Assembly: GCA_030673845.1 (NCBI GenBank) | Contig: JAUTCQ010000012.1 | Location: 307,218-371,217, forward strand | Origin: Verrucomicrobiota bacterium JB022 | GTDB lineage: Bacteria > Verrucomicrobiota > Verrucomicrobiia > Opitutales > Oceanipulchritudinaceae | Length of the DNA stretch: 64,000 nt | Direction of reading: 5' to 3' | The notes under the pieces: model-generated | Database searches by the model: none | Told to the model about the DNA's origin: nothing | Seen by the model: the letters and a program-made list of their open reading frames with translations, nothing else | Shown: positions 7,389 through 36,186 of the stretch, one piece after another | Numbering within the stretch: position 1 is the stretch's first letter | Layout of the letters: every line of letters begins with the position of its first letter | Made by a program: the position numbers and the translations under genes

Positions 7389-7391
7389 CCC

Positions 7392-9494: not shown

Positions 9495-11432
9495 ATGTCT
9501 TCCGAAAAAGTTTCCATCCCCGAAGAGATGCAAGGCCGCCTGCGGCTCGTCTTCATCTCCAGCGCCTTCCTCATCGCGGGCCTCTTGCTGCCCTTGTTAC
9601 GGCCCGACCAGGCCCTGCTGGGCAGCATGCTGGCGCTGATCGGTGCCGTTGTCATCGCCGCACCGATCCTGATCGACGTGATCGGCTCGATGCGCACCTC
9701 GGGCTTTGCCGCCACCCAGTTTTATATGGACCAATATGTGGTCCTCGCCCTCGCCGCCACCCTCGCCACCGGCAAATACGTGACCGGCGGGATCGTCGCG
9801 ATCATCCTCGTGCTCGGCCAGATGCTGGAAGAGCGCACCGTGCTGGGGGTCGAAAGTGCCCTTGCCCGCCTGCGCAAGCTCTCGGAAGTCCGGGCGCGCC
9901 GCCTGCGCGACGACGGCACCGAGGAGGAGGTCGACGCCGCCGAGCTGAAGGTGGGCGAGCGCGTCCGCATCCGCCCTGGCGATTTTGTCCCGACCGACGC
10001 CTTGGTGATCAGCGGCCACTCACAGCTCGACCAGGCCAACATCACCGGCGAGTCCTTGCCGGTCGACGCCGGTGAAGGTGCGGAGATCTTTGCCGGCACG
10101 ACCAACCTCACCGGCCTACTCGAAGCCCGCGTGGTGAAGGAAGCCGGTGACACCGTCGTGGCCAAGGTGCAGCAGATTATCGAAGAGGCCAAGGAGTCCG
10201 AGGCCCCGATCATCCGCATGGCGGAAGACTACGCGCGCTATTATACGCCGTTGATTATCCTGATCGCGGCTTGCGTCTTCTTCTTTACCCGCGATGTCGA
10301 CCGCGCGATTGCGGTGCTGATCGTGTCGATCCCCTGCGCCTTCGTACTCGCCAGCCCGTCCGCCATGGTCGGGGCGATCTCCAGCGCTTCGCGCCTGGGC
10401 ATGCTGATCAAGAGCACGCGCAACCTCGAGCTGGGCCGCCAGATCGACACGGTGGTCTTTGACAAAACGGGCACGCTGACCCAAGGCGTGCTGCGGGTGG
10501 AAGAGATCCGCACGCATGGCGGCTGGACCGAAGAGGCCGCCCTGGCGCTTGCTTCCGCCCTGGAGCAGCACTCGAACCACCCGGTGGCCAAGGCAATTCG
10601 GGAGGCCGCGCGCCACCTGTCGCTGCCCGAAGTGCAAGACTTGAGCGAAGCCCCAGGGCGCGGCGTAACGGCAACCGTGGGCGAGCAGCGCGTGCTGGTG
10701 GGCCGAAAGCTGTGGCTGGAGGAGCAAGGCGTGACCGTCGAGGGGCTGCCGACCGACCAGCCGCTGAGCTTGATTCACCTCGCGGTGGACGGCCAGCAGA
10801 TCGCGACTTTTGGGCTGGCCGACCAACTGCGCCCGGAAACGGCGGAGGCGCTGGAGCGTCTGCGCTACATCGGGATCGAGCGTTTTGTGATGCTGACGGG
10901 CGACCGCCAGCCGGTGGCGGAGGCGATTGCGGCGCGCGTAGGCATTGCGGAGTTTCGCGCCGAGTGCCTGCCGGAAGACAAGCAGATCGAGATCACCAAG
11001 CTGAAGGAAAGCGGCTGCAAGGTGATGGTGGTCGGCGACGGTCTCAATGATGCCCCGGCGCTTGCTTCGGGCGACCTGGGCGTGGCGATGGGCGCCCTCG
11101 GCAACGATGTGGCCGTCAACACCGCCGATGTGGCCCTGATGACAAACGACCTGCGCCGCCTGGCCGACCTGCTGGAGCTGTCGCACCGCACGGTGGGCAT
11201 TATCAACCAGAACCTGCTTTGCGGCTTTGGGCTGATCGTGGTCGCCATCGTGCTGTCGACCGCAGGCTTTGTCAGCCCGATCCTGGCCGCATTTTTCCAC
11301 GAGTTCAGCGCATTTTTTGTCATCTTCAACAGTGCTCGCCTGATGCGTTTCGATGGGCTGGAAGAGGAGTTGGCAGAATCGAACAGAATAGAACCGGAAG
11401 CGAACCCCGGCACAGTTCCGGCTCTGGTTTGA
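9495..11432 (+). CDS. Heavy-metal-translocating P-type ATPase (P1B, short-N-terminus P1B-4-like) with atypical 'IPC' TM motif
   Basis: A-domain 'TGES' (ITGESLPV), phosphorylation motif 'DKTGTLT', hinge 'GDGLNDAPAL', and the P1B N-domain 'HP' motif (SNHPVAKAI). The TM6 motif is 'SIPCAF' where P1B pumps have CPC/SPC. No N-terminal metal-binding domain. The start is 3 nt after the previous stop. Confidence 0.85.
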   Translation: MSSEKVSIPEEMQGRLRLVFISSAFLIAGLLLPLLRPDQALLGSMLALIGAVVIAAPILIDVIGSMRTSGFAATQFYMDQYVVLALAATLATGKYVTGGIVAIILVLGQMLEERTVLGVESALARLRKLSEVRARRLRDDGTEEEVDAAELKVGERVRIRPGDFVPTDALVISGHSQLDQANITGESLPVDAGEGAEIFAGTTNLTGLLEARVVKEAGDTVVAKVQQIIEEAKESEAPIIRMAEDYARYYTPLIILIAACVFFFTRDVDRAIAVLIVSIPCAFVLASPSAMVGAISSASRLGMLIKSTRNLELGRQIDTVVFDKTGTLTQGVLRVEEIRTHGGWTEEAALALASALEQHSNHPVAKAIREAARHLSLPEVQDLSEAPGRGVTATVGEQRVLVGRKLWLEEQGVTVEGLPTDQPLSLIHLAVDGQQIATFGLADQLRPETAEALERLRYIGIERFVMLTGDRQPVAEAIAARVGIAEFRAECLPEDKQIEITKLKESGCKVMVVGDGLNDAPALASGDLGVAMGALGNDVAVNTADVALMTNDLRRLADLLELSHRTVGIINQNLLCGFGLIVVAIVLSTAGFVSPILAAFFHEFSAFFVIFNSARLMRFDGLEEELAESNRIEPEANPGTVPALV

Positions 11433-21080: not shown

Positions 21081-23141
21081 ATGCGCCTGAGCTTCCTCAC
21101 CCTGATCGCCGTCTGCGTCAGCCACCTCGGCTGGGGTCAGGGCAGCACGCTCTCGAAGGAAGACCTCGTCAACGCGGTGTGGCACTACCACCTGGAAAGC
21201 GCGTTGGCCGAGCCGGAGAAGGTCTACAAGCTCGACCTTTCGCGGCAGGGGCTGGAAGCCTTCCCGCTGGAAGTGACGGGGCTGCCCAACCTCCGCATCC
21301 TGCTGCTCAACCACAACCGGATCGCAGTGGTGCCGCCGGAGATCGGGCGCCTGCAAAAGCTGGTGGAGCTGGAGCTGAACGACAACGAGCTGGAGGAGCT
21401 GCCGCCCGAGCTGTTTACCATCGGCACGCTCTCAGAGTTGGAGGCCTCGCGCAACCGCATCCGCGAGCTGCCCGCCGCCGTCGCCCAGCTGCACCAGTTG
21501 ACCGAGATCGAGCTGAACGAAAACCGCCTGACGCGTCTGCCCGACGAGGTGGGGCAGCTGACGGAGCTTGAAGAGCTGAAGGTGGCCCGCAACCAGTTGA
21601 CCGAGCTGCCGGCCTCGATCCTCGAACTCGACCAACTAGGCGAACTGGTCGTCGGCTCCAACCAGCTAAGCCACCTGTGGCCCGACATCGACCGCCTACG
21701 CAATCTGCGCGACCTCGACATCTCCAACAACAACCTGCGCGAGCTGCCAGCGGCGCTCTTCGATTTCCACCTCAGCCTGCTCTTTCTCAAGAACAACCCT
21801 TTTGCCCATCCGTTGACGGAAGAGCAGGTGGCCGCCGTGCTCCACGCCGAGGAAAACGACTTCGACGCGGTGATCCTGAGCCTGGCCGAGGCGGGCGACG
21901 CTGTATTGGCGGAGCGTTATCTGGATTTTGCGCAGCGCTATTTCGAGGAACACAAACTGTGGGGCGATCTCGCCGCCGCCTACCTCACGGCAGCCTTCGT
22001 CTACCGCGACCTGGGGCAGCTGGAGCTGGCCGTGGATTACACCAACCGCGCGGAAGCCTTGGCCGAGGAAGTCAATTTCGACTTGTTGACGGCGGACGAC
22101 GACGAGGCCTTTTACGCCAACACGACGGAGATCATCCGCGACGCCCAGAACCTGCAGGAGCTGTTGCACAGCGAACATGAGAAGGCGACCCTGCGCCGCA
22201 ACGTACGCTGGGGCATGATCGCGGGGATGGCCCTGCTGATGGGCTTCTCGGCTTTCGTCTACTGGAGCCGTCGCCGCCTGCAGCGCTACAACCGGGAGCT
22301 GGCCGAGCAGCGCAGACAAATCGCCGAACAGGCCGAGGCGCTGGAGCTGGCAAACGATCATCTGACCGCGCGACAGGGCGAGATTTTGGCGCAAAACGAG
22401 CGGATCGAGGCCCAGGCAGCGGATCTGCGCCGCCTCAACGCGACCAAGGACCGCATCTTTTCCATCGTGGGACATGATTTGCGCAACCCGCTTTATGCGA
22501 TCGAAAGCGTGGCCGAGCTGATCGAAGACGAACAGGGCTTTTGCGAGCCGCAGGAGCAGCAACGCCGCGCCCAAGTGATCCAACGCAGCGCGCAGGAGGC
22601 GTCCCAACTGCTCCACAACCTGCTCGACTGGGCGCGTACCCAGACCAACGACATCCCCTACCGTCCGGGTTTCGTCCAGCCGGGGGTTTTGGTCGATAGC
22701 ACGCTCGACCTGCTGCTGCCTTCCATCCAGCGCAAGCGGCTGCTGATCGACTCGCGGATCGCACCGCATACGGTCGTTTATGCCGACCCGCACATGCTGC
22801 AGACGGTTTTTCGAAACCTGATTGGCAATGCCATCAAGTTCAGCCATGAAGGTGGCCGCATCAGTGTGTGCGAGCGCCAGAGCGAGTCGTGGCACGAGTT
22901 CGAGATCGCCGACGAAGGAGTCGGCATGGAACAGGGAGTGGCCAAGGGACTGCTGCGGCAGACCCGGATCCACTCGGCCACCGGCACCCGGGGAGAAAAA
23001 GGAAGCGGGCTGGGCCTGCTCATCTGCCGCGAGTTCATTGCCCGCAACGAGGGAATGCTGGAGATCGATAGTGCCCCGCAGCAAGGAACGCGCTTCGTCG
23101 TCCGCCTGCCCCTGGTCGGCCTTGCGTTAGCGGTACGTTAG
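21081..23141 (+). CDS. Sensor histidine kinase with N-terminal leucine-rich-repeat (LRR) and TPR-like sensor region
   Basis: Signal/TM, then about 8 LRRs (LxxLxLxxNxLxxLPxxI, e.g. 'LPNLRILLLNHNRIAVVPPEIGRLQKLVELELNDNELEELP'). A helical TPR-like region, a TM and a coiled coil follow. HisKA 'FSIVGHDLRNPLYAI'. HATPase_c 'GNAIKFSHEGGRISV…DEGVGMEQ…GSGLGLLICREF'. Confidence 0.85.
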   Translation: MRLSFLTLIAVCVSHLGWGQGSTLSKEDLVNAVWHYHLESALAEPEKVYKLDLSRQGLEAFPLEVTGLPNLRILLLNHNRIAVVPPEIGRLQKLVELELNDNELEELPPELFTIGTLSELEASRNRIRELPAAVAQLHQLTEIELNENRLTRLPDEVGQLTELEELKVARNQLTELPASILELDQLGELVVGSNQLSHLWPDIDRLRNLRDLDISNNNLRELPAALFDFHLSLLFLKNNPFAHPLTEEQVAAVLHAEENDFDAVILSLAEAGDAVLAERYLDFAQRYFEEHKLWGDLAAAYLTAAFVYRDLGQLELAVDYTNRAEALAEEVNFDLLTADDDEAFYANTTEIIRDAQNLQELLHSEHEKATLRRNVRWGMIAGMALLMGFSAFVYWSRRRLQRYNRELAEQRRQIAEQAEALELANDHLTARQGEILAQNERIEAQAADLRRLNATKDRIFSIVGHDLRNPLYAIESVAELIEDEQGFCEPQEQQRRAQVIQRSAQEASQLLHNLLDWARTQTNDIPYRPGFVQPGVLVDSTLDLLLPSIQRKRLLIDSRIAPHTVVYADPHMLQTVFRNLIGNAIKFSHEGGRISVCERQSESWHEFEIADEGVGMEQGVAKGLLRQTRIHSATGTRGEKGSGLGLLICREFIARNEGMLEIDSAPQQGTRFVVRLPLVGLALAVR

Positions 23142-23269: not shown

Positions 23270-25384
23270 ATGCGCAAGAGCTTGCTTCATCATTCCGTCA
23301 AAGATCCGCTCATTATGGCCGGAATCGTCCTGGCGGCTGCGCTCTTTGGCATCTTTACGCGCCAGATCGGTTTTTTGGCCGCCTTCTGGCCCGCCAATGC
23401 CCTGCTGATCGGGTTGATGATCCGCACGCCTCGTTACGCGGCGCTACCCAACTGGGTCGCAGCCTTCGTGGCCCTCGTTGCCGCCGACGTGCTGGCGGGT
23501 ACCACTTGGCATCTGACCCTGTGGCTGACGAGTGCCAATATGGTGGCAATCTTCACCGGGTACCTGCTGCTGATGCGCATGAACGAGGCCGATCGCCAGT
23601 TGCGACGCCCCCTTTCCGTGCTCTACCTCTTCGCAGCCTGCACCATCTACTCGATCGCCGCCGCGACGGTAGGCGCTGGCACTGCGCCCGTTTATTTCGA
23701 TAAACCTTACTGGGCCGGCTTCGGATTCTGGTCTACCGCCGAGTTGGTCAACGCCGTCATCGTCCTGCCGATGCTGCTGACCTTCCCAACCGGTGCGGCT
23801 CTATGCGAGAAGTTGCGGGAGATGGGGAAGCTGCGCTGGGCCAAAAGGTTGGCTCCGGCAGCGGCCCTCCTCGCGTCCCTCTTCCTCGCGGTGCTGATAG
23901 ACGGCCCGGGCTCGATGGCCTTTCCTGTGCCCGCCCTGCTCTGGTGCGCGCTCAGCTACAGCCTTTTCTCCACCGCTACCCTTACAACGGCCCTCTGCAG
24001 CGGCATGATGGTAGCCATCGCTACCCAGTTCATCGCCATACCGCTCGGCGAAGATCCGATGGCGGCCATGGCCTCGGTGCGTCTCGGCCTCGTGCTCATG
24101 GCCCTCGCGCCTCTGACGGTGGCAAGCGTCAGCCTCGTCCAACGCGAACTGCTGGAGGCCGAGCGCTTGCATGGCGAGAAGCTGGAGAAGGCGAAGGAAA
24201 CGGCGGAAGCGGCCCAACAGGCCAAGAGCAACTTTCTCGCGATCATGAGCCATGAGATCCGCACGCCCATGAACGGCATCATTGGACTCACCGATCTGCT
24301 CAACCGCACTTCGCTGGACGCGGAGCAGGCTGACATGGGTCGCCTGATCAAGCACAGCTCCGAAAACCTGCTGACGATCCTCAACGACATTCTCGACTTT
24401 TCCAAGATCGAGGCCGGCAAGCTGGAGATCACGCCGGAGAGATTCGAGCTCGCCCCCTTGGTCGAAGATGTTGCGGCCCTGCTCGCTCCGGCCGCAGACA
24501 AGAAGGGCCTCGCGCTGAATCTGGAGATCGACCCCGCCCTCAGCGAGCCTTTGTGGGGCGATGCCGGGCGGATTCGGCAGGTGTTGACCAACCTGGTGGG
24601 CAACGCGCTGAAATTTACCACGCAGGGTAGCGTCACGATTGTCGCACGCGAGCTGGAGCACTCCGACTGCAGCGTGACATTTCGCATGGCCGTGCGTGAC
24701 ACGGGGATTGGCATTGCCCAGGCAGCCCAGGCCCAGCTTTTCCAGCCCTTCACGCAAGTCCATGACGCCCCGGCCCGCAAGTTTGGCGGCACCGGGCTCG
24801 GCTTGTCGATCTGCCAACAACTGATCCACCTGATGGGCGGCCAGATCGGCCTGTCCAGCGAGTCGGGCCGGGGCTCGGAATTCTGGTTTACCCTCACCCT
24901 GCAGCGCAACGGCCAAGAGGGAAACAAGCGTCATCCCCGGCCCAGCGCCCCTACCCCAGGCCTGAACCCTGTTCAGCGTTCCCTGGATTTGTTGGTGGCC
25001 GACGACAACGCCGTCAACCAGACCGTCATTCGCCGCCTGCTTGCCTCGATGGGGCACCGGGTAGAGATCGTGAGCGACGGGCAGGAAGCACTCGATCGCC
25101 TGGCCCAGCAGCCTTTCGACGCGGTATTGATGGATTGCCAGATGCCGGGCGTCGACGGCTACGAGGCCACGCGGCGGATTCGTTCCGGATCCTTGCCAGG
25201 CGTCGATGCGAACGTTTGCGTGATAGCCCTGACCGCTTCGGCCATGTCTGAAGCGCGGGACGCGTGCCTTTCCGCCGGGATGGACGACTTCGTCAGCAAG
25301 CCCATCCGCCCCGAGGAGATGCACGCCGCCCTGCAACGCGTTTGCAAGGCCGGTGAAGACGCGACGCAGGAGCCGACCGCGTAG
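23270..25384 (+). CDS. Hybrid sensor histidine kinase / response regulator with MASE1-like polytopic membrane sensor domain
   Basis: About 300 aa of multi-TM N-terminus. HisKA '[18 protein letters not shown]'. HATPase_c ([10 protein letters not shown]…DTGIGI…[13 protein letters not shown]). C-terminal REC domain ([13 protein letters not shown]…[18 protein letters not shown]). Confidence 0.9.
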
Positions 25385-25389
25385 CGCAT

Positions 25390-28300
25390 CTAGTCGTCAT
25401 GCGCCTGGCTTTCCGGGAGCGGGTCGAGCCCGATCCGCAGGAAGAGGCGGTTGAAGGCGCGCAGAAGGGTGCGCAGTTGCCATTTGATATCGTCGGATAG
25501 CTCGATGTGGTGGGTTAAGGCCGTGTTTTCGGGTGCGGCCGAAGGGGTGAGATGCTGGAGCTGAGCGTCGAGTCGGCGCAGAGGCTCGACCACAGTCTCG
25601 GCAAGCTGCCCCAGCGAGGCGGAAAACTCCGGCGGCAGGTGCAGCGTTGCAGGCGTGGCGGGGCGTTGTGCGGCCTCGGCCAAAGGCGCGAGCGAACGCC
25701 CCACCTGCCCTTGCAGCGCGGCCAGGGACTGCGTGAGCGTGGTCAGATCTTGGCGGAGCGCGCCCAGGCTGTCGGGGGTAAGGGCGAGCGGCGGCAGCGG
25801 GCGCTCCAGTAGCTGGGCCACTTGCGCCTGCCCTTGCCCGAACTGGGCCAAATGGGTTGATACTTCCGCGCGGAAGGCAGGGTCGAGCATCACCGGCTGG
25901 CCCTGCTGGCCCACCGCCGTCTCCAGCTGGCTGGAAATCTTGCCGACGCCTTGGGTCAGGTCGTGCACTGCGCCGACCACGCGGTCGACGGGGTCCTGAT
26001 CCTTCGCACCCATCACGGAGTTGCGCACGTAGCGTTCCTTGACGAGGGCCCAGCGCGCCTGTTCCTGCTCGGTCAAGAGGCCCTCCATCTCACGGAACTT
26101 CAGGAGATTCGACTCCGCCCCGGTGGTGAGGGTCTGGGCTTCGCCCACGTAGTGCTGCAAGACGAGCGCATCCACCTCGCCCGGCGTCATGAGCGGCAAC
26201 ACCTTTTCCGCCATCCGGTTCATGTTGCGGTAGGAGCCCTGGAGCTTGAAGGGCGGCTCGGTGCGGTAGTTGTCTGCCGTGGCGGCGCTGCGGATATACT
26301 CGAGGTTGACGCGCAGGACGGTGTCGCGCACGCGCATCAGGTGACGCGTGACGGTGACCATCTCGTTGACCTCTTCCATCGAATAGTTGCCGACAAAGTC
26401 GACGCCTTCATGGCTGCCCGTCTCCGCGATGCGCATGACGGCGTAGACGTCTTCGCGTGCCTTGCCTGCGAGCGTGCTGAGCGCAGGATTGGAAGTGAGG
26501 CAGTTTTCGAGGTAGCTGGCCTCGAAGGCGGTGCGGTTTTGCTGCACCATGTCGCCCAGGTTGTAGGTGTCGGCGCGGTTGGCCAACATGTCGGGGATCT
26601 GGAAGCGCCCCCCCGTCTCGGTGTAAGGGTTGCCGGCCATAACGACGGCCACCTTCTTGCCGCGCAAGTCGTAGGTACGCGCCACGCCGTTGTAGACGCC
26701 CTCGATCTTGCGCTGCCCGTCGCAGAGCGAGATGAACTTCTGCAGCAGCTCCGGGTTGGTGTGCTGGATGTCGTCGAGGTAGATCATCACGTTGTCGCCC
26801 ATCTCGAAAGCGAGATTCAGCTTGTTGACCTCCTCGCGGGCGCTCGCGTTGCGGGCTTCGCTGGGGTCGAGGCTGGTGACGTCGTGCCCGATGGCCGGGC
26901 CGTTGACCTTGACGAAGGTGATGCCGAGGCGGTTGGCGACATACTCCATCAGGGTCGTCTTGCCGTAGCCGGGCGGCGAGATGAGCAGCAGCATGCCCAT
27001 GCGGTCGGTGCGGGTGTTCTCGCCGGCGGTGCCGATCTGCTTGGCCAGGTTGTCGCCAATGAGGGGCAGGAAGACTTCGTCGAGCAAGCGGTTACGCACA
27101 AAGGCGCTCATCACCTGCGGCTTGAACTCGTCGAGCCTCAGCTTTACGCGCAGGGTCTCGACCAGCTCGTGCTTGCGGCGGTCGAAGGCCAGCCACTGGG
27201 GCATGGTATCGCCCTCGAAGCGGCGGAGCTTGCGCAGGAAGTGGTTGTAATGCAGGTGGTAGCGACGGCCCTCGCCCAGCACCGGGTGATCGCCCCGCAA
27301 GCCTTCCAGGTCGCGCTCCAGCGGCACTTCGACGACCTGGCTCGGCTGAATTCCGCCGCGCAGGAGGTGGGCCGCCGTCTCGTCCACGTATTCCAGCTCA
27401 CGCTCGTTCAGGCCTTGGGCAAGGCCGTAGCCGAGCAGCCAGTCGCGGATCACTTCAAATTCGGCGGCGGGTTGCCCCTTCATGCGCTCGCGGGCCTCCT
27501 CGAAGGCGTTGAGGTAGCGCTGCGCCACCAGCTCCACGCGGAAGCGCTCGGCGAGCTGCGCGGCTTCGCGGCTGACCGTCAGGCTGTCGGGCGTCACCAG
27601 CTCGGTAAACAGATAACGCGCGGCCTCCGGGGCGAGTGCGGCCGGGAACAGCGCGGTGCGTTCGCAAAACTCCTCCACCGCCCGCTCGATCTCGCGGATG
27701 TAGCCGGCCTGCGTCTGGTGCTGCGGGAAGAGCCGCCGCATGGTGGCAAAGGAATCGAGCCTCTGGCTGAGCAACTGGCGCTGTTCGCTGCCTGCATACT
27801 GCTCCCAGAAGACGAGGGCGCAGGCGCGGGTCGCCGTGTCGTAGCGCAGCAGGCCGACCACGGCGTGGATCTCCACCAGTGCATCGAGCAGCAGGCGGGC
27901 GTCGAGGTCGTGCAGGCCCTTGGAGTAGCCTTCGCGGTAGCGCGGGCCCATGAACCGTTGGATCCAGGCCAGGCGGGCTTCGGGCGTGGCGGCGAGGTAA
28001 CCCGGCAGGTCAAGCCCGTCCCCACCCTGCTCCAGTGCCTGCAGTGCCGCGTAGGCGAGGAATTCGGCGCGGTAGACGGTGTCGCTCTCGCTCGGCAGCT
28101 CCATGTCCCACACCGGGCGGAGAGCGTTCAACTCCTCATCCACGATACGCTGGAAAAACTGGGTGCCGGTGAGGTGGTAGTAGAAGTCGCCCTCGCGCCG
28201 GACCGTCGTGAGGTTCAGCTCTTGCTGGTTGACGGTGAACTTGTGGCGGCCGAACTGCAGGAGGTTGGTGCCGTCGACGAAGAGCTCCTGCCGGTCCTTG

Positions 28301-30822
28301 AGCTGGCGCACGGCATCGCCCTGGGCGGTCTTGAGGCGGGTGGCGAGGTCGTCGCCCTTCAGCGGCTCGCCCAGCTCCTTGAGCTGCCGGATGAGGTTGC
28401 GCACCTTGTCGACCATCAGGTCGCTCGCGAAATAGCCGTTGATCTCGTTGACTTCCTTGAACTGCGCGACGCGGCTGCGGATGCCCTTGAGGATGCGCTC
28501 ACCCGCCGACATCAGCTGCCCGGCCTTCTGGTTGCGTGCTTCCTGCAGGGCCATGCGGCGCGACTGGAAGGCGTTGTAGACTTCCTCCCGCTTGGTCGTG
28601 ATCTGCTCGACGAACTCCGGGAACTCCGCGAACTGGCCCTCCAGCTCTTCGAGCTGCACCATGAGCTTGGTCAGGTATTCCTCGCAACGCTCGGGCGAGT
28701 CGACGATGTCGAGGTAGTTGATGACCGCCTGGTTGAGCAGCTTGAGCTGGGCGTTGAACTGCGCCACGCCCTCCGTCCGCATCATGTCGCGACGGCGGTT
28801 GCGCAGCTCCACCTTCAGTTGGTTCAGGTCGGCGTAGATCGCGGAAATGCGGTCGATGATGGCGGTAGCCTGGGTGGCGTCGTCGATCTTGAGGTTGTTG
28901 ACGATGTCGATCAACAGCTCTAACTGCGCCCCCGTCTCGTCGCAAGCGGCCTCGACTTCCTTGAGGATGGCGACGGTATCGGCCTCGCGCCCCGCTTTGG
29001 CATGTTCGGCCAGTGCGGCGGCATAGGGCGCAAGCGCAGCCTCGCTGAGCAGGAAAGTGACGGTCTGTTGCGCAACCCGAGCGGACAGCTCGCTAAGGGA
29101 GGTTTCGAGCTGGTCGACTGCCGGGAGATCGACGTAGCGCAGCTCCCGCAGGCCGATGATCTCGCCCCGCAACTGGCGCAGGCGGGCGAGGTGGGCCACA
29201 TAGCCGCGAATGTCATCCGGCGGCGTGCCTCCGGCCTCGGTCAGGGCCTTGCGCGTGGCCTGGCTCACGGCGTCCATGCGCGCCTGGGTGGCCTTGCGGA
29301 TGCGCTGCACCTTCTCGAACTCATCGATGGCGGCCTGCCCGGTGGCATGTACGGCGGCGAGGGTCGTTTTCAGGTCCACCGCCTCGGGTCGGTCGAGCCA
29401 GTAATGCAGGTCGATCACCTTCTGGCTGAGCCGCACAAGGTCGACGTACAGGCCTTCGTAGCTGTCTTCGCGCGCGATGAGCAACGAGATTTCGCGCAGG
29501 GCGGAGAGGCAGCGCACGATCTCGGCGTTGCCCACCTTGAAGAGGAAGTTGTCGGCTTGCCCAGCCACCACCTGCTGCTCTTTGGAGAAAGGCGTTTGCC
29601 AGATCTGCAGGGCGTGCGCCTGGGTCGGCTCTTCGTTGGCCTTGAAGTAAACCAGCTCGCCGTTGGAGAAGAGCGTGAAGCCTTGGCAGACGATGGGCGC
29701 CTCCACGCTCTGCTCGATCAAATTGTAGCGCATGAGCACATACGTGCCGCTGCGGCGCTCGTAGAACACATAGAGGTAGTCTTCGCCGTTGGGCGCCTTG
29801 ACGACGCGCTCGAAATACATCTGCTGCAGCTCGCCGGGGAAGAGCTTGTATTCGCCGTTGTGCAGGTAATAGCCGTTGGCGAAGATCACGCCCTGATCTT
29901 CCGGCAGCAGCACGCAAGACTGCTCAATGGCGTCGACCCGGCGCACCTCCTTCACCTTTTCGTTGTAGATGAAGTGGCGGGCCTGCTTCTCCTGATAAGG
30001 CTTGATCTTGAGCAGGATGAGGCTGCCGAGAATCGCGTAATGATACTCGGCGTCGTCGAGCGTCTGATCCTTTTCCTGCACGGGCTCGGCGTAGATGCCC
30101 TGCCCGTCTTCGGTGTTGTCCTCGATCTTGATCGTGAGGTCGCCCCCCACCGCTTCCACAAACAGACGGTCTTCAATCGAGATGTGGGGGTGCGGACCGC
30201 CGCGCTGCATATCGCGATGGGCGCGGGTCCACTTGAACTGGTGCTGCTCCGGGAACTGGTATTCGTGCTCGAAACGGTTGCCCTCGTAGCGCAGCACGTC
30301 ACCGTCGATCAGCCACTTGAAGACCTTGATGTCGCGCAGGTCGTCGCTGATGCGGAAGGCCATGTAGAGGAAGGCCCCAATGACCATGAACTTTACGAAG
30401 ACGGCCTTGCGGTAGTAACGGTAGAGATACGCAAAGTCGTCCTGAAACTCCTGCGAGGCCAGGATCTCCTCCAGCGGCAGCGGGTGGAAACTGCGGTCGG
30501 CCCGGTCGTAGCGGAAGGCGGCCAGCACATCCGTGGGCGTCACGGTCGAGCGCAGGCCCATCTGCACGTTGTAGCCAAAGAGGAAGCGGTCTCCCGAGAG
30601 CGACACCATGCCGCGCGCCACGCAGTTGTAATCCGTGGTGATGCGCTGTGTGGCCAGCAGCTCGGGCTCGACCACGCCAAAGACGCCTTGGCGGGCGGTA
30701 TTGAGCTGCTGGATCTTGCCCTGCAGCTCCGCGCCTTGCTGGCGCAGCCGCTGGCGGATGACCTCGTAGGCACCGCCTTCGAGCTTCGAGGCGGGCGCGG
30801 GGGTGGCGGGGACCGACGACAT
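25390..30822 (-). CDS. Giant (1810 aa) uncharacterised protein with a single C-proximal AAA+ ATPase module; third gene of the NfeD-flotillin operon
   Basis: The ORF is uninterrupted. It has a beta-rich N-terminal ~450 aa, a ~700 aa helical/coiled-coil middle, and an AAA+ core at ~aa 1280 (Walker A 'ISPPGYGKTT', DNA ~26953-26979; Walker B 'VMIYLDD'; sensor-1 'VVMAGNPY'). The C-terminal tail is Q/A/L-rich and low-complexity. It has no signal peptide and I recognise no protease or nuclease motif. It lies 104 nt downstream of flotillin on the same strand. Confidence 0.8.
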   Translation of the reverse strand: MSSVPATPAPASKLEGGAYEVIRQRLRQQGAELQGKIQQLNTARQGVFGVVEPELLATQRITTDYNCVARGMVSLSGDRFLFGYNVQMGLRSTVTPTDVLAAFRYDRADRSFHPLPLEEILASQEFQDDFAYLYRYYRKAVFVKFMVIGAFLYMAFRISDDLRDIKVFKWLIDGDVLRYEGNRFEHEYQFPEQHQFKWTRAHRDMQRGGPHPHISIEDRLFVEAVGGDLTIKIEDNTEDGQGIYAEPVQEKDQTLDDAEYHYAILGSLILLKIKPYQEKQARHFIYNEKVKEVRRVDAIEQSCVLLPEDQGVIFANGYYLHNGEYKLFPGELQQMYFERVVKAPNGEDYLYVFYERRSGTYVLMRYNLIEQSVEAPIVCQGFTLFSNGELVYFKANEEPTQAHALQIWQTPFSKEQQVVAGQADNFLFKVGNAEIVRCLSALREISLLIAREDSYEGLYVDLVRLSQKVIDLHYWLDRPEAVDLKTTLAAVHATGQAAIDEFEKVQRIRKATQARMDAVSQATRKALTEAGGTPPDDIRGYVAHLARLRQLRGEIIGLRELRYVDLPAVDQLETSLSELSARVAQQTVTFLLSEAALAPYAAALAEHAKAGREADTVAILKEVEAACDETGAQLELLIDIVNNLKIDDATQATAIIDRISAIYADLNQLKVELRNRRRDMMRTEGVAQFNAQLKLLNQAVINYLDIVDSPERCEEYLTKLMVQLEELEGQFAEFPEFVEQITTKREEVYNAFQSRRMALQEARNQKAGQLMSAGERILKGIRSRVAQFKEVNEINGYFASDLMVDKVRNLIRQLKELGEPLKGDDLATRLKTAQGDAVRQLKDRQELFVDGTNLLQFGRHKFTVNQQELNLTTVRREGDFYYHLTGTQFFQRIVDEELNALRPVWDMELPSESDTVYRAEFLAYAALQALEQGGDGLDLPGYLAATPEARLAWIQRFMGPRYREGYSKGLHDLDARLLLDALVEIHAVVGLLRYDTATRACALVFWEQYAGSEQRQLLSQRLDSFATMRRLFPQHQTQAGYIREIERAVEEFCERTALFPAALAPEAARYLFTELVTPDSLTVSREAAQLAERFRVELVAQRYLNAFEEARERMKGQPAAEFEVIRDWLLGYGLAQGLNERELEYVDETAAHLLRGGIQPSQVVEVPLERDLEGLRGDHPVLGEGRRYHLHYNHFLRKLRRFEGDTMPQWLAFDRRKHELVETLRVKLRLDEFKPQVMSAFVRNRLLDEVFLPLIGDNLAKQIGTAGENTRTDRMGMLLLISPPGYGKTTLMEYVANRLGITFVKVNGPAIGHDVTSLDPSEARNASAREEVNKLNLAFEMGDNVMIYLDDIQHTNPELLQKFISLCDGQRKIEGVYNGVARTYDLRGKKVAVVMAGNPYTETGGRFQIPDMLANRADTYNLGDMVQQNRTAFEASYLENCLTSNPALSTLAGKAREDVYAVMRIAETGSHEGVDFVGNYSMEEVNEMVTVTRHLMRVRDTVLRVNLEYIRSAATADNYRTEPPFKLQGSYRNMNRMAEKVLPLMTPGEVDALVLQHYVGEAQTLTTGAESNLLKFREMEGLLTEQEQARWALVKERYVRNSVMGAKDQDPVDRVVGAVHDLTQGVGKISSQLETAVGQQGQPVMLDPAFRAEVSTHLAQFGQGQAQVAQLLERPLPPLALTPDSLGALRQDLTTLTQSLAALQGQVGRSLAPLAEAAQRPATPATLHLPPEFSASLGQLAETVVEPLRRLDAQLQHLTPSAAPENTALTHHIELSDDIKWQLRTLLRAFNRLFLRIGLDPLPESQAHDD

Positions 30823-30926
30823 AGGGGAATCGATGGGAACGAATGCGAACGCAAGTAACGAAGAGAGAGAAGGGACGCGCCCGGCGGCGCATCCACTTCA
30901 GCCCCTTCCTCTGGCCCGGCTCGGGC

Positions 30927-33074
30927 TTAGTTCTTTTGCGTCAACGTGGGGTTGAGGGCCAGCAGATCGCGCACAAACATCTGGCCGTAAGGCGACTTGT
31001 CGGCGATGCCGATATACTCCTGGATCTTGGCCAGCAGGCTCTGGTCGTTGCCTGCGAGGCCGGCCAGCTTGGCCAAGAGGGCGCTCAGCGTGAGGTTGCG
31101 GACGTCTTCGGTGCGCAGGCCCAGCTTGTTGACCCATTGGGTGACGTTGGCGCGGAACTGCTCCGGCCCGCCGTCGAAGAAGGTCTCCTTGACGTCGAGC
31201 AGGTGCTCGGAGCTGTTGATCGTGCGGTCGACCGACTTGCCGCGCGTGACGGCGCCGACGATGCGGTCGTAGAAGTCGGTGCTGCCGCCCACGATGTCGA
31301 CGCGGGTGTTCTTGAGCGCCTCGGCCAAAACGGCGGCCTGGTGCTCGGCAATGCGTTCGTTGACTTCGATGGAAGCCAGCTCGATCTCCTTGTCCTTCTG
31401 CAGGCGCAGCTTGAACTCTTCGTGTTCGCGGCCCACGCCGTCGAAGATCTTCATCGCCTCGGCCTTTTCCTTGATACCGGTGGCATCGGCGAGGTAGCGC
31501 AGCTCGTCGCTCTTGGCGAGCGATTCGCCTTCCTTCAGCTTGGCGGCGGCCATGGCTTCGAGCACTTGGGCTTCGCCCAGGCCAGCGGCGGCGGTCTCGG
31601 CCGTCTTGGCGGAGGCGAGGTTTTTCTTGGCTTCGGCGGTGCGCTGGCTGGCGCTTTCTTCGGCTTCGGCGGTCACGACGAGCTCCTGCGCCTTCAGCTC
31701 GGCCGAGCGCTTGCTGGCCTCGGCGGCACGGACTTGGGTGAGGAAGAGCTCTTCGGCCTTCATCACTTCGGCGTCCTTGCTCGCTTCGGCGGCCTTGAGC
31801 TGGGCGATGAGCTTTTCCTGCGCTTCCTGCTCGGCCTTGGTGATGGCGACTTGCTTGGCGCGGTCGGCCCCGGCAAAGGCTTCGGTGTCCTTGATCTTTT
31901 CCTGCTCGATCACGACGGTCTTCTCGACCATCACGCGGTCCTTGATCACCTCCTGGATGTTGCGCTTTTCGACTTCCACGGCTTTTTCGCGCTCGATGTC
32001 GGCCAGTTGGGTCACTTTCTGGCGCTCGACCACTTCCAGATCGCGGTCGCGCTGGACGCGCTCGGTCTCAATGGCATCGGTACGCTGCTTGTTCTTTTGC
32101 GCGATGATGATCTGGCGATCCTTGTTCTCGGTCGCGATGGCCAACTCTTCCTCGGTGGCGATGCGGGCCTGCTCGTGGCGGAGGCGCTGCTCTTCGGCCA
32201 CGCGCTTCGATTCGGCCTCTTCGCGGCTGCGGATGACGGAGATTTCGCGCTTCTGCTTTTCCTCGGCTTCGGCTTGTTGCTTCTCCAGCTCAAGCACGGC
32301 TTCGCGCGCCTCAACGTTTTGCTTGGTGATGGTCTTGACGCGGTCCTGATCGATCTGGTTGGCGAGGATCTTTTCGCGCGAGGTGCGGTCGGTGATCTTC
32401 TTGATGCCTTCGGCGTCGAGGATGTTGTTGGGGTTGAGGTGTTCGAGCCCCGTCTGCTCCAGATAGTCGATGGCGGCGTCTTCGAGCACGTAGCCGTTCA
32501 AGTCCGTCCCGATCACCTTGATGATCTCATCGCGGAACTTGTTACGCTCGGTGTAAAGCTCTTCGAAGTGGAACTGCTTGCCCACCGTCTTGAGTGCCTC
32601 GGAGAACTTGGCGTCGAAGAGCTCGCGGATGCCTTCGATACTGCTGGCGCGTTCGCAACCGATGGAGGTGGCGACGTTCTTTACATCGGCCTCGTTATCG
32701 TTGATGCGCACGAAGAAATCGACCGCGATGTCGGCCCGCATGTTGTCCTTGCAGATGAGGCCTTCCGAACCGCGGCGCTCGACCGTGACCCGGCGCACCG
32801 TGATGTCCATCTTCTCCAGCTTGTGGACGACGGGCAGCACGATCATGCCGGTAAACGAGACCTTGGTGCCGCCCGCGCCGTTGCGGATCAGCGCCTTGCC
32901 CTGCTCCACCTTCTGGTAGGCGGAGGTGACGAAAAAGACGACGGCCACCAGGATAAAGAGCAGGATCCCGATGGTAATGAGGGTCAGGTCGCCAAGGATA
33001 CCACCGCCTCGGCTGGCAGTGGCTTCGGCATCGGCAGCGGCTTGCGCGAGGATAGGAAGCAGGACAGGGTGCAT
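30927..33074 (-). CDS. Flotillin-family SPFH protein (YqiK/FloT-like)
   Basis: N-terminal TM (ITIGILLFILVAVVFFV) and an SPFH core. A long E/A/K-rich coiled coil with 'AEAEEKQ…' repeats follows, then a flotillin-type C-terminus. It lies 34 nt downstream of the NfeD-like gene. Confidence 0.85.
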   Translation of the reverse strand: MHPVLLPILAQAAADAEATASRGGGILGDLTLITIGILLFILVAVVFFVTSAYQKVEQGKALIRNGAGGTKVSFTGMIVLPVVHKLEKMDITVRRVTVERRGSEGLICKDNMRADIAVDFFVRINDNEADVKNVATSIGCERASSIEGIRELFDAKFSEALKTVGKQFHFEELYTERNKFRDEIIKVIGTDLNGYVLEDAAIDYLEQTGLEHLNPNNILDAEGIKKITDRTSREKILANQIDQDRVKTITKQNVEAREAVLELEKQQAEAEEKQKREISVIRSREEAESKRVAEEQRLRHEQARIATEEELAIATENKDRQIIIAQKNKQRTDAIETERVQRDRDLEVVERQKVTQLADIEREKAVEVEKRNIQEVIKDRVMVEKTVVIEQEKIKDTEAFAGADRAKQVAITKAEQEAQEKLIAQLKAAEASKDAEVMKAEELFLTQVRAAEASKRSAELKAQELVVTAEAEESASQRTAEAKKNLASAKTAETAAAGLGEAQVLEAMAAAKLKEGESLAKSDELRYLADATGIKEKAEAMKIFDGVGREHEEFKLRLQKDKEIELASIEVNERIAEHQAAVLAEALKNTRVDIVGGSTDFYDRIVGAVTRGKSVDRTINSSEHLLDVKETFFDGGPEQFRANVTQWVNKLGLRTEDVRNLTLSALLAKLAGLAGNDQSLLAKIQEYIGIADKSPYGQMFVRDLLALNPTLTQKN

Positions 33075-33108: not shown

Positions 33109-33768
33109 TTAGGAACGAAGCTGTTCGTCGAGCGTTTCTTTGGGGAAGTAGCCTTCCCAGGGTTGGACGTAGTAGAGCAGGCGCTTGTCGTCGCCCTCGA
33201 TGATGAGCGCCTCGTCGCCGCGCTTCAGCGGTGCGCTGCCGGGCACGAGGCGGATCTGCAGGATCTTTTCCCGCCCGTCCCACTTCACGAGGCCTTGGCC
33301 GAAGCTGTCGGTGACTTCCCCGGTGCGCACGGTGCAGATCTTGCCGACCATCGGCTCGTGGACCGTGCCCTCGATCGCCAGTTGGCGCAGCCACGGGCGC
33401 AAGGGGCGCATGGCGGCCTTGGTGAGGAAGAGGCTTACCAGCACGCTGCCGCCCATGTAGACGAAGCCCATTACCAGCCCCAACGCGTGATTGAAGTAAT
33501 AGTTCGTCAGCATGGAGAGGAACCATGCGAAGGTGATGCAGATGCTGCCAAAGAGACTCAGCGGGACTACGTCGAGGTCGAAATACTTGTAGAGGGTCTT
33601 GAAAAAGCCGCCCCCCAGGCTGATGTCGGCATCCACGTCGCCCCCAAAGTCGAGGTCGAAATCGAAGATCCCGAGCAGCGTCACGAGCCAATACAGCAGC
33701 ACGAGCCCCAACAGGATCGTCAGGGGCAGGTTATACCAGGCAAGGGCTTCTCGGATGATTTCGGGCAT
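33109..33768 (-). CDS. NfeD/YqiJ-like membrane protein with C-terminal OB-fold
   Basis: 219 aa. It has three or four TM helices followed by a short beta-rich soluble domain ('GKICTVRTGEVTDSFGQGLVKWDGREKILQIRLVPGSAPLKRGDEALIIEG'). This arrangement and the position immediately upstream of flotillin are typical of the YqiJ/NfeD–YqiK module. Confidence 0.7.
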   Translation of the reverse strand: MPEIIREALAWYNLPLTILLGLVLLYWLVTLLGIFDFDLDFGGDVDADISLGGGFFKTLYKYFDLDVVPLSLFGSICITFAWFLSMLTNYYFNHALGLVMGFVYMGGSVLVSLFLTKAAMRPLRPWLRQLAIEGTVHEPMVGKICTVRTGEVTDSFGQGLVKWDGREKILQIRLVPGSAPLKRGDEALIIEGDDKRLLYYVQPWEGYFPKETLDEQLRS

Positions 33769-34024: not shown

Positions 34025-36103
34025 TCAGGGAACCCAGACGGGAGGGTTGGCGCCCCCGCTGAGGTTTTGATTGTTGGAGGCGTTGAGCGTCACTTGCCCT
34101 TGGGCACCGACATAGATCGTGCTGCCCACCTGATTGTCTTCCACCACGGCGGTCACGTTGGGCTGCGGATGGTAGATGTCGATCCCGGCGGCACCACAGC
34201 CGAGGATGTAGTTGTCGCGGACGTTGATGGTTTGCCCGGCGGTGAGCACGCGGCGATACATGATACCGGTCTTGGTGCTCCGGCCCGTGGTGTTGGTCCA
34301 GGTAATGCGGTTGTTCTCGATCGTCGTATCACCGGCGGCGACCTTGACGTTGATCGCGGTAGCCGGATCTGTCATCGCGAGGGTGAAGTTCAGCTCGTTG
34401 CCGGTAATCGTGGGGCCGGGGACGGAGGTGCCCATGCCGCGGTGCGAAATGTCGATCACCGCGTTGGTGAACGTGTTGTTGCGAATGGTAATATTGCCCG
34501 GGCCCTTGAAATCGTCGACCGACGAGAGACCGGCGTAGCTGATGAAGACGTTGTCTTCGAGCACCACGTCCTGCACATTGCTCGCGACGTAAGAGCTGTT
34601 ATACATGCGGTAGAGCGGGTAGCCCTCGATATTGCTCGTCACGAGGTTGCGGCGGAAGACCATGTTCTTCGTGCCGTAGAAGTTGGCGATGGCGCCGTTG
34701 AGGCCGTCACTCGCGATGTTGTCTTGCGCCACGCTGTCGAAGCAGCCTTCGAAATCGAGCGAGATGTCGTCGGAGCGGTGGGTGTTGTTGAACTCGGCCG
34801 TGATATACTGGCCCATGCTGATGAAGATGCCGGCATTGACCATGTCGTTGGCGACGTTGCCGGCGATGTAGAATCGGCGGGCCCAACGCGGATTCGTCAT
34901 CGCGCCGTTGTTGTTCGGGCCGGTGCCGAAGGAAGCGTTGCCACCCCACACCCCGATGCCGGTGCCGTAGAAGCTCAGGTTGTTCTTGTAGATCTCACTG
35001 TCGATCGTATAGCGGAAGCGGATGCAGGCCTGCTCTTCCACGATGCCATTGACGTTCGGCCCGATCCCAGTGCAAAAGGCGACCCGGATGTTGGCCGAGA
35101 GCTGGTCTTCGGACGTGATGTCGGCATAGGTCGACTTGTGGGTGGTGACGAAGATCAGGTTACCCGGGTCGGCCGTGCAGTGGCGCATGAGGACGTTTTT
35201 GGCCGTCTTGTAGTGCGCAATGTATTTGGAGGGGTTGTAAGACGAGGGGATCACGCCACCGATGACCTTGAAGGCCGTGTACTCGTTGTCGCCCATAAAG
35301 GTGGTGTCGTTGCCAAACGCGCGGAAAATGCTGTTGCCGTCGGCCACCTGGTTGAAGATTGTGCTGTCGCCCGCGCCCTGGATAATGGCCCCTTTGGGCA
35401 TCGTGATGATGCCGCTCACGCGGTAGGTACCGGGCGGGAAGTAGAGGAACTTGTGCGTATTGAGGGCCGCGCCGATGGCGGTGGTGACATCGGTATTGTT
35501 GCCGGGAATACCGAGGGTGCTGACGTCCTTGCGCTGGTATTCCGTCAGGTAGACATCGTCGATCCAGAGCGAGCCGGTGGTCGAGTGGAGCGTGACGCCC
35601 ACCACGAGCGAAGTCTGGTCGGCGGTGAAGGAGCACTCGAACAGCTGCCAATCGAAGTTGCCCGTCGGCAGGGCCGTGGTGGCCTGCGAAGCCCCTTGGA
35701 TCACGAAGTTGGTGCCCGCACCCACAGACTGGCCCTTGGCCCAGACGTAGGCGTAATAAGTCTTGCCGACCGTGAGGCCGGAGACGGTCTGCTTGACTTG
35801 CTTGTAGACGCCCGGCTGCTGGGAGCCGGTGTAGGTCATCTTGACGCTTTGCTCTTCCCAGTGGAACTGGGTGGCGTCGGTCGCCACGGTGGCAGTGGGA
35901 GCCCCGGCCTGCCCGATGACCCAGTTATTGCTGCCGCCGAGCGGCGCTTCGAAGCTACTGTTCTGGAGCAGGTTCTGCGCGTGAGAGACCACCGGGGCCA
36001 GCCCGAGGGCGGAAGCCAGGCAGAGGGCAAAGGTGCGTAGAGGTGAAACACGTGGGCGGTGAGAGACAGGCCGCACGGATTGAGGTTTTGTGGGTAGGTT
36101 CAT
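34025..36103 (-). CDS. Secreted carbohydrate-active protein: N-terminal CBM4/9-like module plus right-handed beta-helix (Pectate_lyase_3 / GH28-related) domain
   Basis: The signal peptide (…LRTFALCLASALGLAPVVSHA) is followed by 'QNLLQNSSFE…W' (CBM_4_9-like). The beta-helix region has 'TDVTTAIGAALNTHKFLYFPPGTYRVSG' and many Asn-rich coils. The longest ORF would start 11 codons upstream at 36136. Confidence 0.65.
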   Translation of the reverse strand: MNLPTKPQSVRPVSHRPRVSPLRTFALCLASALGLAPVVSHAQNLLQNSSFEAPLGGSNNWVIGQAGAPTATVATDATQFHWEEQSVKMTYTGSQQPGVYKQVKQTVSGLTVGKTYYAYVWAKGQSVGAGTNFVIQGASQATTALPTGNFDWQLFECSFTADQTSLVVGVTLHSTTGSLWIDDVYLTEYQRKDVSTLGIPGNNTDVTTAIGAALNTHKFLYFPPGTYRVSGIITMPKGAIIQGAGDSTIFNQVADGNSIFRAFGNDTTFMGDNEYTAFKVIGGVIPSSYNPSKYIAHYKTAKNVLMRHCTADPGNLIFVTTHKSTYADITSEDQLSANIRVAFCTGIGPNVNGIVEEQACIRFRYTIDSEIYKNNLSFYGTGIGVWGGNASFGTGPNNNGAMTNPRWARRFYIAGNVANDMVNAGIFISMGQYITAEFNNTHRSDDISLDFEGCFDSVAQDNIASDGLNGAIANFYGTKNMVFRRNLVTSNIEGYPLYRMYNSSYVASNVQDVVLEDNVFISYAGLSSVDDFKGPGNITIRNNTFTNAVIDISHRGMGTSVPGPTITGNELNFTLAMTDPATAINVKVAAGDTTIENNRITWTNTTGRSTKTGIMYRRVLTAGQTINVRDNYILGCGAAGIDIYHPQPNVTAVVEDNQVGSTIYVGAQGQVTLNASNNQNLSGGANPPVWVP

Positions 36104-36186
36104 GTTTTTCGGGGGGTATAAGAAGTGGTGAGACATTCGGCCTCACCAACGAGAAAATGCGTCCGCAGCCTGGGCGGAAAAGGGGC

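Follow-up and report, generated by a model that had tools for sequence, protein, structure and literature searches.

The flotillin operon and its ATPase gene

The window analysed here, a stretch of 64,000 nucleotides from Verrucomicrobiota bacterium JB022, contains an operon of three genes that encode, in this order, a YqiJ-like membrane protein, a YqiK-like flotillin and a giant ATPase, all on the minus strand, as is every feature located below. The first gene (33109..33768) codes for a YqiJ/DUF1449-like (NfeD-type) membrane protein of 219 aa, recognized by hhalign (family alignment versus Escherichia coli YqiJ, probability 96.9%, E 2e-10) and by a position conserved across loci; by this comparison its product is of the YqiJ/YuaF type, in which several TM segments are combined with an OB-like domain at the C-terminus. 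The flotillin (30927..33074, 715 aa) combines an N-terminal TM helix (residues 30-50) and an SPFH domain with a long helix rich in E, K and A and a C-terminal extension that is conserved; it is homologous to E. coli YqiK (BLASTP E 2e-45; hhalign probability 99.95%). Sequence and profile searches of Pfam, NCBIfam and PDB with these two proteins returned no match, even at E = 10, and their identification derives entirely from direct comparison with YqiK and YqiJ of strain K-12. Across ATPase-linked flotillins, the segment at residues ~600-680 is conserved, and E. coli YqiK, encoded in an operon without an ATPase gene, has nothing equivalent to it. Between the flotillin and ATPase genes, a gap of 104 nt contains a terminator-like hairpin (30873..30894), a possible attenuator picked out solely by a consensus scan.

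The last gene of the operon (25390..30822) is a continuous 1810-codon ORF, established by ORF calling and translation, whose product carries Pfam matches to DUF3686, DUF7902 and AAA+. An identical protein has been deposited as 'DNA repair ATPase [Verrucomicrobiota bacterium JB022]'. The first-pass annotation, which did not include the flotillin operon context that we regard as decisive, had considered a fusion of two genes by frameshift and seen no sign of one. Such an artefact is now ruled out, the ORF being unbroken and 74 orthologous ORFs, all complete and 1608-1978 aa long, aligning with it from end to end. Also borne out is the prediction of a protein devoid of TM helices: the 19-residue segment that scores highest for hydrophobicity (Kyte-Doolittle 1.88, residues 140-158) corresponds to two strands of a beta-propeller in the AlphaFold model.

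Domain organization of the 1810-residue protein

The protein is typical of the DUF3686/DUF7902/AAA+ family. The DUF3686 match (E 6.8e-175, residues 32-474) spans model positions 1-448 of 448, and the DUF7902 match (E 4.3e-25) covers residues 596-678. The novelty implied by the first description of its architecture does not hold, because these confident profile matches, together with AAA, assign the whole protein to a known multi-domain family. Two AlphaFold models underlie the domain map (mean pLDDT 87.7 and 87.8), one of them covering residues 1-900.

The protein is predicted to begin with a heptad-like helix (residues 18-48, 30679..30771; pLDDT >90, heptad patch 20-52), followed by a beta-propeller of about seven blades (residues 54-410, 29593..30663; DSSP strands 54-409) that forms the core of DUF3686. 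Foldseek confirmed the propeller fold of the model, retrieving generic propellers only (Sec12, Elp1, CyRPA, PON1, clathrin NTD and prolyl oligopeptidase) at 6-11% identity. Next comes a helical stalk or bundle (residues 426-847, 28282..29547) that includes DUF7902 and modelled helices at 484-531, 649-706 and 735-785. The second of these is confidently predicted and, at 58 residues, the longest; it contains the stretch (residues 666-705) that had been quoted as evidence for long coiled coils ahead of the ATPase. That claim survives in part: the models support long helices or helical bundles in this region, but a continuous canonical coiled coil is not supported, the heptad signal of a crude periodicity script (4.6% of windows) lying within the range of shuffled controls (mean 1.8%, maximum 9.9%). 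Nor are the ~1240 residues preceding the ATPase mainly coiled coil, as they also contain, in the models, the propeller, a small conserved beta domain (residues 854-892, 28147..28263; strands in both models and invariant G858, F862, N865 and H883) and an all-alpha domain (residues 918-1154, 27361..28071). A beta element and a long helix (residues 1169-1228, 27139..27318) lead into the ATPase in the model.

Conservation is lost in the protein only at the C-terminal tail (residues 1640-1810, 25393..25905), where the conservation profile gives identities of 0.03-0.05 at an occupancy of 0.2-0.35. Tail length in the family has a median of 66 residues and a range of 0-364. The initial description of a Q/A-rich tail directly after the ATPase, which quoted residues 1638-1706, was right about a variable tail but needs correction in two respects: its composition (L 18%, A 13%, Q 10%, P 8%) is not simply Q/A-rich, and ~200 conserved residues (1422-1639) intervene. 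The suggestion that the tail is disordered or binds a scaffold is plausible; the tail is lineage-specific, and in one homologue this part of the protein carries ankyrin repeats.

Catalytic motifs of the AAA+ module

A single AAA+ module (residues ~1245-1440; Pfam AAA match 1278-1398), with its alpha/beta core modelled at residues 1245-1421 (26560..27090), lies far from either terminus, in agreement with the first-pass annotation. Its motifs, SPPGYGKTT, hhhDDIQH, AGNPYTE and PDMLxNRAD, are near-invariant among 186 family members. Walker A (SPPGYGKTT, residues 1282-1290, 26953..26979) is identical in 183 of them, and Walker B (IYLDDIQH, residues 1347-1354, 26761..26784) has DD in place of DE not only here, as noted at first sight, but in all 186. 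A pre-sensor-1 beta-hairpin (residues 1372-1385, 26668..26709) is formed in the model by two strands between alpha3 and the sensor-1 strand. Sensor 1 (VMAGNPY, N1398) and a candidate arginine finger (PDMLANRAD, R1416) occupy invariant columns at 26569..26643, modelled as beta4, alpha4 and beta5, with R1416 at the position expected of a trans-acting finger. A lid and a conserved C-terminal helical domain follow (residues 1422-1639, 25906..26559), as judged by model helices and the conservation profile, with invariant R1499, R1520 and R1532. In the family alignment, the loop at the pore-loop-1 position, NGPAIGHDVTSLDP, lacks the aromatic-hydrophobic-Gly motif, so that substrate threading is not supported.

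The DD pair, which the first-pass annotation read as a possible sign of slow or regulated hydrolysis, could signify very weak hydrolysis, and the protein might then work mainly as a scaffold or switch gated by ATP and not as a motor, with very slow hydrolysis leaving nucleotide binding to control the assembly of a large propeller/stalk platform under the membrane. The invariance of DD, the missing aromatic pore-loop motif and the preponderance of interaction-type domains, with ~70% of the conserved protein lying outside the ATPase in the models, all point this way, as does the precedent of DnaA, an AAA+ switch whose hydrolysis is slow and regulated and whose Walker B likewise reads 'DDIQ'. However, the invariance of N1398, R1416 and the lid arginines is the pattern expected of an active hydrolase, and aspartate can serve as a catalytic base. 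We regard this mainly switch-like reading as unlikely.

A widespread family under a misleading name

More than 5,000 homologues (5,115) share the same architecture and Pfam set, with lengths of 1600-1980 aa and 49-61% identity across phyla. The family occurs in at least eight phyla and, in GTDB representative genomes, in at least 568 species. The propeller is present in 691 clusters at 50% identity; among the best 150 of the listed clusters, nearly all full-length members (~1500-2040 aa) carry it at or near the N-terminus. The gene is also found in Proteus mirabilis, Vibrio and Hymenobacter. The window protein shows no essential difference from proteins combining DUF3686 (PF12458), DUF7902 (PF25472) and AAA, matching them in domain order, length and motifs and reaching 57-61% identity with those of Cerasicoccus and Opitutales; its tail alone is lineage-specific, and the window itself adds nothing new on the family.

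Homologues are named 'DNA repair ATPase' at NCBI, a label that steers readers towards DNA repair. A role as a DNA repair ATPase could draw on this name, on the Pfam description and on structural similarity to RuvB, which gave the lowest Foldseek E-values (4e-6) along with weak RuvB_N/RuvB profile matches. Yet the profile scores stay below the family cut-offs, and neither a DNA-binding domain nor a repair-gene context was found. We consider this role hardly credible and the name a misnomer that the evidence found here does not support. Searches of the literature for DUF3686, PF12458 or an operon of flotillin and DNA repair ATPase found nothing by these names.

Two-sided linkage with flotillin

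Of 65 genome loci, 62 have a flotillin gene upstream of that for the ATPase, and the other three have none adjacent. Reciprocally, when metagenome loci were collected by means of the C-terminal region of the flotillin, all 54 encoded the ATPase N-terminus just downstream. The three genes occur in identical order in Planctomycetota and Acidobacteriota, and RefSeq labels the corresponding neighbours in Streptomyces and on Pseudomonas pQBR103 'flotillin family protein' or 'SPFH domain-containing protein'. In some Bacteroidota, genes are inserted between those for flotillin and ATPase; these are mutually unrelated and were rejected as a fourth component. Since the ATPase gene nearly always follows a flotillin gene, a role on flotillin assemblies is probable, and one in DNA repair is not. 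Operon linkage by itself is uninformative as to which partner is the substrate.

The operon has already been described by comparative genomics, with a proposed role in sub-membrane dynamics, by Ravi et al. 2024 (mSystems, PMC11237479), who report both an 'abbreviated' form without the CesT/Tir-PspA pair and operons combined with PspA. These combined operons bring in another potential substrate: the ATPase might act on PspA/IM30 (ESCRT-III-like) polymers as a functional analogue of Vps4, with flotillin serving only as a membrane platform. On pQBR103, the trio lies directly downstream of a YjfI-PspA/IM30-DUF350-DUF1190-glutathionylspermidine-synthase cluster, and according to a 2025 review a Vps4-like ATPase for bacterial PspA is not known. 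The window has the abbreviated form, tblastn with the pQBR103 proteins having detected no PspA or YjfI homologue in it. We give PspA as the substrate a low likelihood.

A conflict or anti-phage role, with the giant ATPase sensing infection at the membrane, is suggested by the frequency of large ATPase and membrane protein combinations in defence systems, by copies on megaplasmids and by genes for a UvrD-like helicase and a DNA methyltransferase a few kb upstream on pQBR103. Several lines of evidence run counter to it. The best PADLOC match (LmuB, E 5.5e-4) involves helical (coiled-coil/P-loop) stretches and leaves the domains uncovered; 50,697 phage records yielded zero matches; the Pfam search revealed no nuclease, protease or TIR effector domain; and in the loci examined the genes outside the trio are unrelated metabolic ones. 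Furthermore, 43-61% identity over 1600 residues across phyla is unlike the rapid divergence of defence genes. We find a defence function very improbable.

A putative remodeller of flotillin assemblies

Taken together, family membership, predicted structure, motifs and gene linkage suggest that the protein uses ATP to remodel flotillin assemblies beneath the membrane during envelope stress or membrane maintenance, a reading to which we assign a probability of roughly 0.5. The ATPase would assemble as an AAA+ ring, as we infer by analogy with other AAA+ proteins, and the propeller and stalk would recruit it to the sub-membrane flotillin assembly. ATP binding and slow or regulated hydrolysis could then drive the assembly, disassembly or remodelling of the flotillin scaffold or of client complexes within it, and this activity would form part of an envelope-stress or membrane-maintenance response.

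More specifically, and with considerably less confidence, the protein might be a dedicated non-proteolytic motor of bacterial flotillin cages. A MoxR/dynein-like ring would use its propellers and stalks to bind the conserved C-terminal extension, at the dome apex of a YqiK-type flotillin, and would open, disassemble or load the dome upon membrane stress. Such a motor, if real, would be to flotillin what FtsH is to HflK/C or Vps4 to ESCRT-III; it could also be the ATPase still missing from bacterial PspA/flotillin membrane repair.

To our knowledge, no ATP-driven machine acts on bacterial flotillins. The obvious candidate is a ~1700-residue ATPase whose gene, in hundreds of species belonging to at least eight phyla, strictly accompanies that of a single flotillin subfamily. 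The domain map, the clade assignment (MoxR/dynein-like, with an invariant DD Walker B) and the two-sided linkage numbers added here allow the hypothesis to be tested directly in tractable hosts, the operon being carried by Pseudomonas fluorescens SBW25 pQBR103 and by Streptomyces.

Comparison with known AAA+ and SPFH systems

According to its predicted structure, the AAA+ module is of the MoxR/dynein/midasin type. As in the MoxR family (AAA_5/AAA_3; NorQ, CbbQ and RavA), the modelled core fold has a pre-sensor-1 hairpin, and it resembles MoxR structures most closely. By contrast, the MoxR helix-2 insert, a beta-hairpin within alpha2, is not visible in the model, which has coil and short helices between beta2 (1302-1307) and alpha2 (1326-1341), and the canonical DE of the MoxR Walker B is DD throughout the present family. 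Known MoxR-type ATPases operate with VWA/MIDAS partners, whereas no VWA family protein was found among the ten flanking ORFs scanned here. With its ~1240 N-terminal residues, the window protein is also five to six times larger than the MoxR (NorQ and CbbQ), dynein and midasin modules, with which it shares 13-15% sequence identity. It differs from the classical AAA clade (p97, Vps4, FtsH and NSF-D1), which has no pre-sensor-1 hairpin and has an aromatic-hydrophobic-Gly pore loop 1.

At the level of the system, the closest parallels are HflK/C-FtsH and the prohibitin-m-AAA protease, in which an SPFH scaffold is functionally coupled to a membrane ring ATPase (PMC13220708, PMC2636767). The pairing of an SPFH-family scaffold with an AAA+ ATPase is shared, on the strength of gene linkage in the present case. 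FtsH, however, is a membrane-anchored protease of the classical clade, whereas the window encodes a MoxR-like ATPase, predicted to be soluble, that carries no protease domain, and its SPFH partner is of the flotillin type and not of the HflK/C type. The combination of NfeD-like and SPFH2 genes follows the operon logic of Bacillus subtilis yuaF-floT (Hinderhofer et al. 2009), and both genes of the two-gene E. coli yqiJ-yqiK operon are homologous to the first two genes here; these two operons have no third gene, and their flotillins lack the ATPase-linked C-terminal extension. The operon of Ravi et al. 2024 has the same three components as that of the window, which carries its abbreviated version. 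Both studies are computational, and to the earlier description (PMC11237479) ours adds the four elements absent from it, namely structure, clade assignment, motif analysis and linkage statistics.

A very large ATPase of a catalogued family

The gene at 25390..30822 (-) is an uninterrupted open reading frame (ORF) of 1810 codons in the translated window, and its product matches the whole Pfam model DUF3686 ('ATPase involved in DNA repair'; residues 32-474, E 6.8e-175), followed by DUF7902 (residues 596-678, E 4e-25) and AAA/AAA_5 (residues 1278-1404). These confident profile matches to a known multi-domain family overturn the novelty of architecture implied by the first-pass annotation. Family identity is essentially certain: the window's ATPase is a fresh member of a catalogued family, for which a role has been proposed from comparative genomics. 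That this is a single continuous gene, as had been proposed, is borne out by end-to-end alignment with 74 complete ORFs of orthologues, 1608-1978 aa long, which rules out a fusion artefact. A hybrid histidine kinase gene (23270..25384 (+)) converges on it, the two stop codons lying 5 nt apart; the gene before that one (21081..23141 (+)) encodes a histidine kinase that bears a leucine-rich-repeat sensor region at its N-terminus.

Of the candidates scored in a search of 5.8 billion proteins, at least 5115 were matches; the top 120 are all 1640-1980 aa long, share the same Pfam set and show 49-61% identity. On GTDB contigs (one genome per species), at least 568 species carry a relative, spanning Verrucomicrobiota, Planctomycetota, Bacteroidota, Desulfobacterota, Clostridia, Kiritimatiellota and Omnitrophota, to which Acidobacteriota can be added. 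Further relatives reside on plasmids or chromids of Pseudomonas, Proteus, Vibrio, Photobacterium, Halomonas, Streptomyces, Nonomuraea and Deinococcus, and the phage records searched contained no match. Membership of a defence system is a rival reading that we consider very improbable.

The deposited protein identical to ours bears the label 'DNA repair ATPase [Verrucomicrobiota bacterium JB022]', and the Pfam description points the same way. DNA repair is nevertheless the reading to which we give least credence: RuvB scores fall far below family cut-offs, no DNA-related domain was found in the ATPase and its conserved operon partners are membrane proteins, so that the name is, as far as we found, baseless.

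Domain organization and the AAA+ module

Two AlphaFold2 models built on 108-sequence alignments, covering residues 1-900 (pLDDT 87.7) and 780-1660 (pLDDT 87.8, pTM 0.77), delineate an N-terminal helix (residues 18-48), a beta-propeller of about seven blades (54-410), a helical region that includes helices of 48, 58 and 51 residues (426-847), a small beta domain (854-892), an all-alpha domain (918-1154), a beta element with a long helix (1169-1228), the AAA+ alpha/beta core (1245-1421) and a lid with a helical C-domain (1422-1639), followed by the tail (1640-1810). The protein is well conserved between residue 14 and roughly residue 1615, most strongly in the ATPase module (0.75-0.84 identity), whereas conservation collapses in the tail. 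The propeller matches generic propellers only, at 6-11% identity. As sole query it retrieved 691 clusters (50% identity); in the best 150 listed, nearly all full-length proteins (~1500-2040 aa) have it at the N-terminus or close by, even where identity falls to 30%, and it thus appears to be confined to this architecture.

The predicted absence of a transmembrane helix was upheld, the top 19-residue window (Kyte-Doolittle 1.88) corresponding to two beta-strands in the model. The 'long coiled coils', exemplified by residues 666-705, stood only as long helices: in a crude heptad test the helical region did not rise above shuffled controls, and we therefore speak of long helices or bundles rather than proven coiled coils. 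The tail, of which residues 1638-1706 had been quoted, ranges from 0 to 364 residues across the family and is replaced by ankyrin repeats in one full-length homologue (P0085), which suggests a lineage-specific adaptor position. At the extreme end of the window protein's otherwise unconserved tail (residues ~1776-1800; 25423..25497 (-)) lies an amphipathic segment, DDIKWQLRTLLRAFNRLFLRIGLD, recurrent in the closest Opitutales/Cerasicoccus relatives (for example, LDQILEAFHLLFRHTGID) and absent from other lineages.

Within the AAA+ module, Walker A reads SPPGYGKTT (residues 1282-1290) and Walker B reads IYLDDIQH (residues 1347-1354), the DD remarked on in the first-pass annotation recurring in 186/186 full-length members; Walker A, DD, sensor 1 (GNP) and PDMLxNRAD are all essentially invariant in this set. 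From the DD one may reasonably infer slow or regulated hydrolysis. A beta-hairpin (residues 1372-1385) between alpha3 and the sensor-1 strand in the AlphaFold2 model rules out the classical AAA clade, and target-normalised Foldseek TM-scores (CbbQ 0.60, NorQ 0.55, RuvB 0.36) agree with a non-classical one. Sequence likeness to p97 and RuvB is limited to ~40 residues around the P-loop. In the family alignment the pore-loop-1 position reads NGPAIGHDVTSLDP, and the aromatic-hydrophobic-Gly motif was not found. We regard an ATP-gated scaffold, as opposed to a motor, as an unlikely role.

A conserved operon with a YqiK-type flotillin

The ATPase gene closes a three-gene operon, 104 nt downstream of a gene for a 715-aa protein (30927..33074 (-)), which in turn lies 34 nt downstream of one for a 219-aa membrane protein (33109..33768 (-)). 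Pfam, NCBIfam and PDB profile searches gave no match in the 219-aa protein and did not recognise the 715-aa protein as an SPFH/flotillin member, even with a cut-off as loose as E = 10; the ATPase-linked flotillin subfamily is an annotation blind spot. Judged by its sequence, the 715-aa protein is a clear homologue of the flotillin YqiK (E. coli K-12 YqiK: BLASTP E 2e-45, 30% identity over 441 aa; hhalign 99.95%), and the family of the 219-aa protein aligns with YqiJ/DUF1449 (hhalign probability 96.9%, E 2e-10). RefSeq labels the neighbours 'flotillin family protein' or 'SPFH domain-containing protein'.

Gene order is identical in Symmachiella and Sulfidibacter, and in 62 of the 65 genome loci whose upstream sequence extends 3 kb or more, the flotillin gene precedes the ATPase gene on the same strand. 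Reciprocally, 80 metagenome loci of the closest relatives were sampled by the flotillin C-terminal region, and the ATPase N-terminus follows the flotillin in all 54 that have at least 1.5 kb downstream. We infer a mechanism, at a probability of roughly 0.5, in which the propeller and stalk would bring a ring-forming ATPase to YqiK-type flotillin assemblies, where, under envelope stress, it would remodel the flotillin scaffold or the clients of that scaffold. Flotillin residues ~600-680 (31035..31277 (-)), conserved among ATPase-linked flotillins and without counterpart in E. coli YqiK, are a candidate docking site.

In the 104-nt gap between flotillin stop and ATPase start, a consensus scan alone marks a GC-rich terminator-like hairpin (30873..30894 (-)), a possible attenuator of the very large ATPase gene. 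In several Bacteroidota, 1-4 small, mutually unrelated genes, many for predicted membrane proteins or lipoproteins, separate the flotillin and ATPase genes (loci L071, 3651..5768; L059, 4555..5979; L019, 4612..5698; L038, 4669..5835). Just upstream of the window's operon, on the same strand, a gene (34025..36136 (-)) encodes a 703-aa protein whose domains are of the right-handed beta-helix (pectate-lyase-like) type; it is not kept beside the operon in other genomes. Elsewhere in the 64-kb window, three consecutive SPFH/Band_7 genes (5469..9492 (+)), the first at 5469-7388 with its domain in an unusually central position (residues 298-487), the others at 7392-8405 and 8395-9492, bring the SPFH proteins to four with the operon flotillin; the triplet, directly followed by a P-type ATPase gene (9495..11432 (+)), is reminiscent of the Pseudomonas aeruginosa PaFlo5-6-7 operon (PMC13086221).

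Long and abbreviated forms of the operon

Ravi et al. 2024 (mSystems, PMC11237479) described this operon by comparative genomics, reported that some versions include a CesT/Tir-PspA pair while abbreviated ones are widespread, and proposed a role in sub-membrane dynamics. The pQBR103 locus of Pseudomonas fluorescens SBW25 (L087, 4438..12401, continuing into L085 to 12223) has YjfI, PspA/IM30, a rhomboid protease, DUF2491, DUF350, DUF1190 and a glutathionylspermidine-synthase-like gene, then the three operon genes. That the ATPase acts on PspA polymers is a rival reading that we consider unlikely. PspA is detectable nearby in only 2/80 loci. Literature searches by family identifiers and flotillin/AAA+ keywords found no experimental study of the ATPase family, which is a more interesting experimental target than the window itself; pQBR103, a well-studied megaplasmid with a genetically tractable host, carries the PspA-linked operon. 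pQBR103 has the long form of the operon and the window the abbreviated one, and the E. coli yqiJ-yqiK operon, unlike that of the window, has no ATPase gene.
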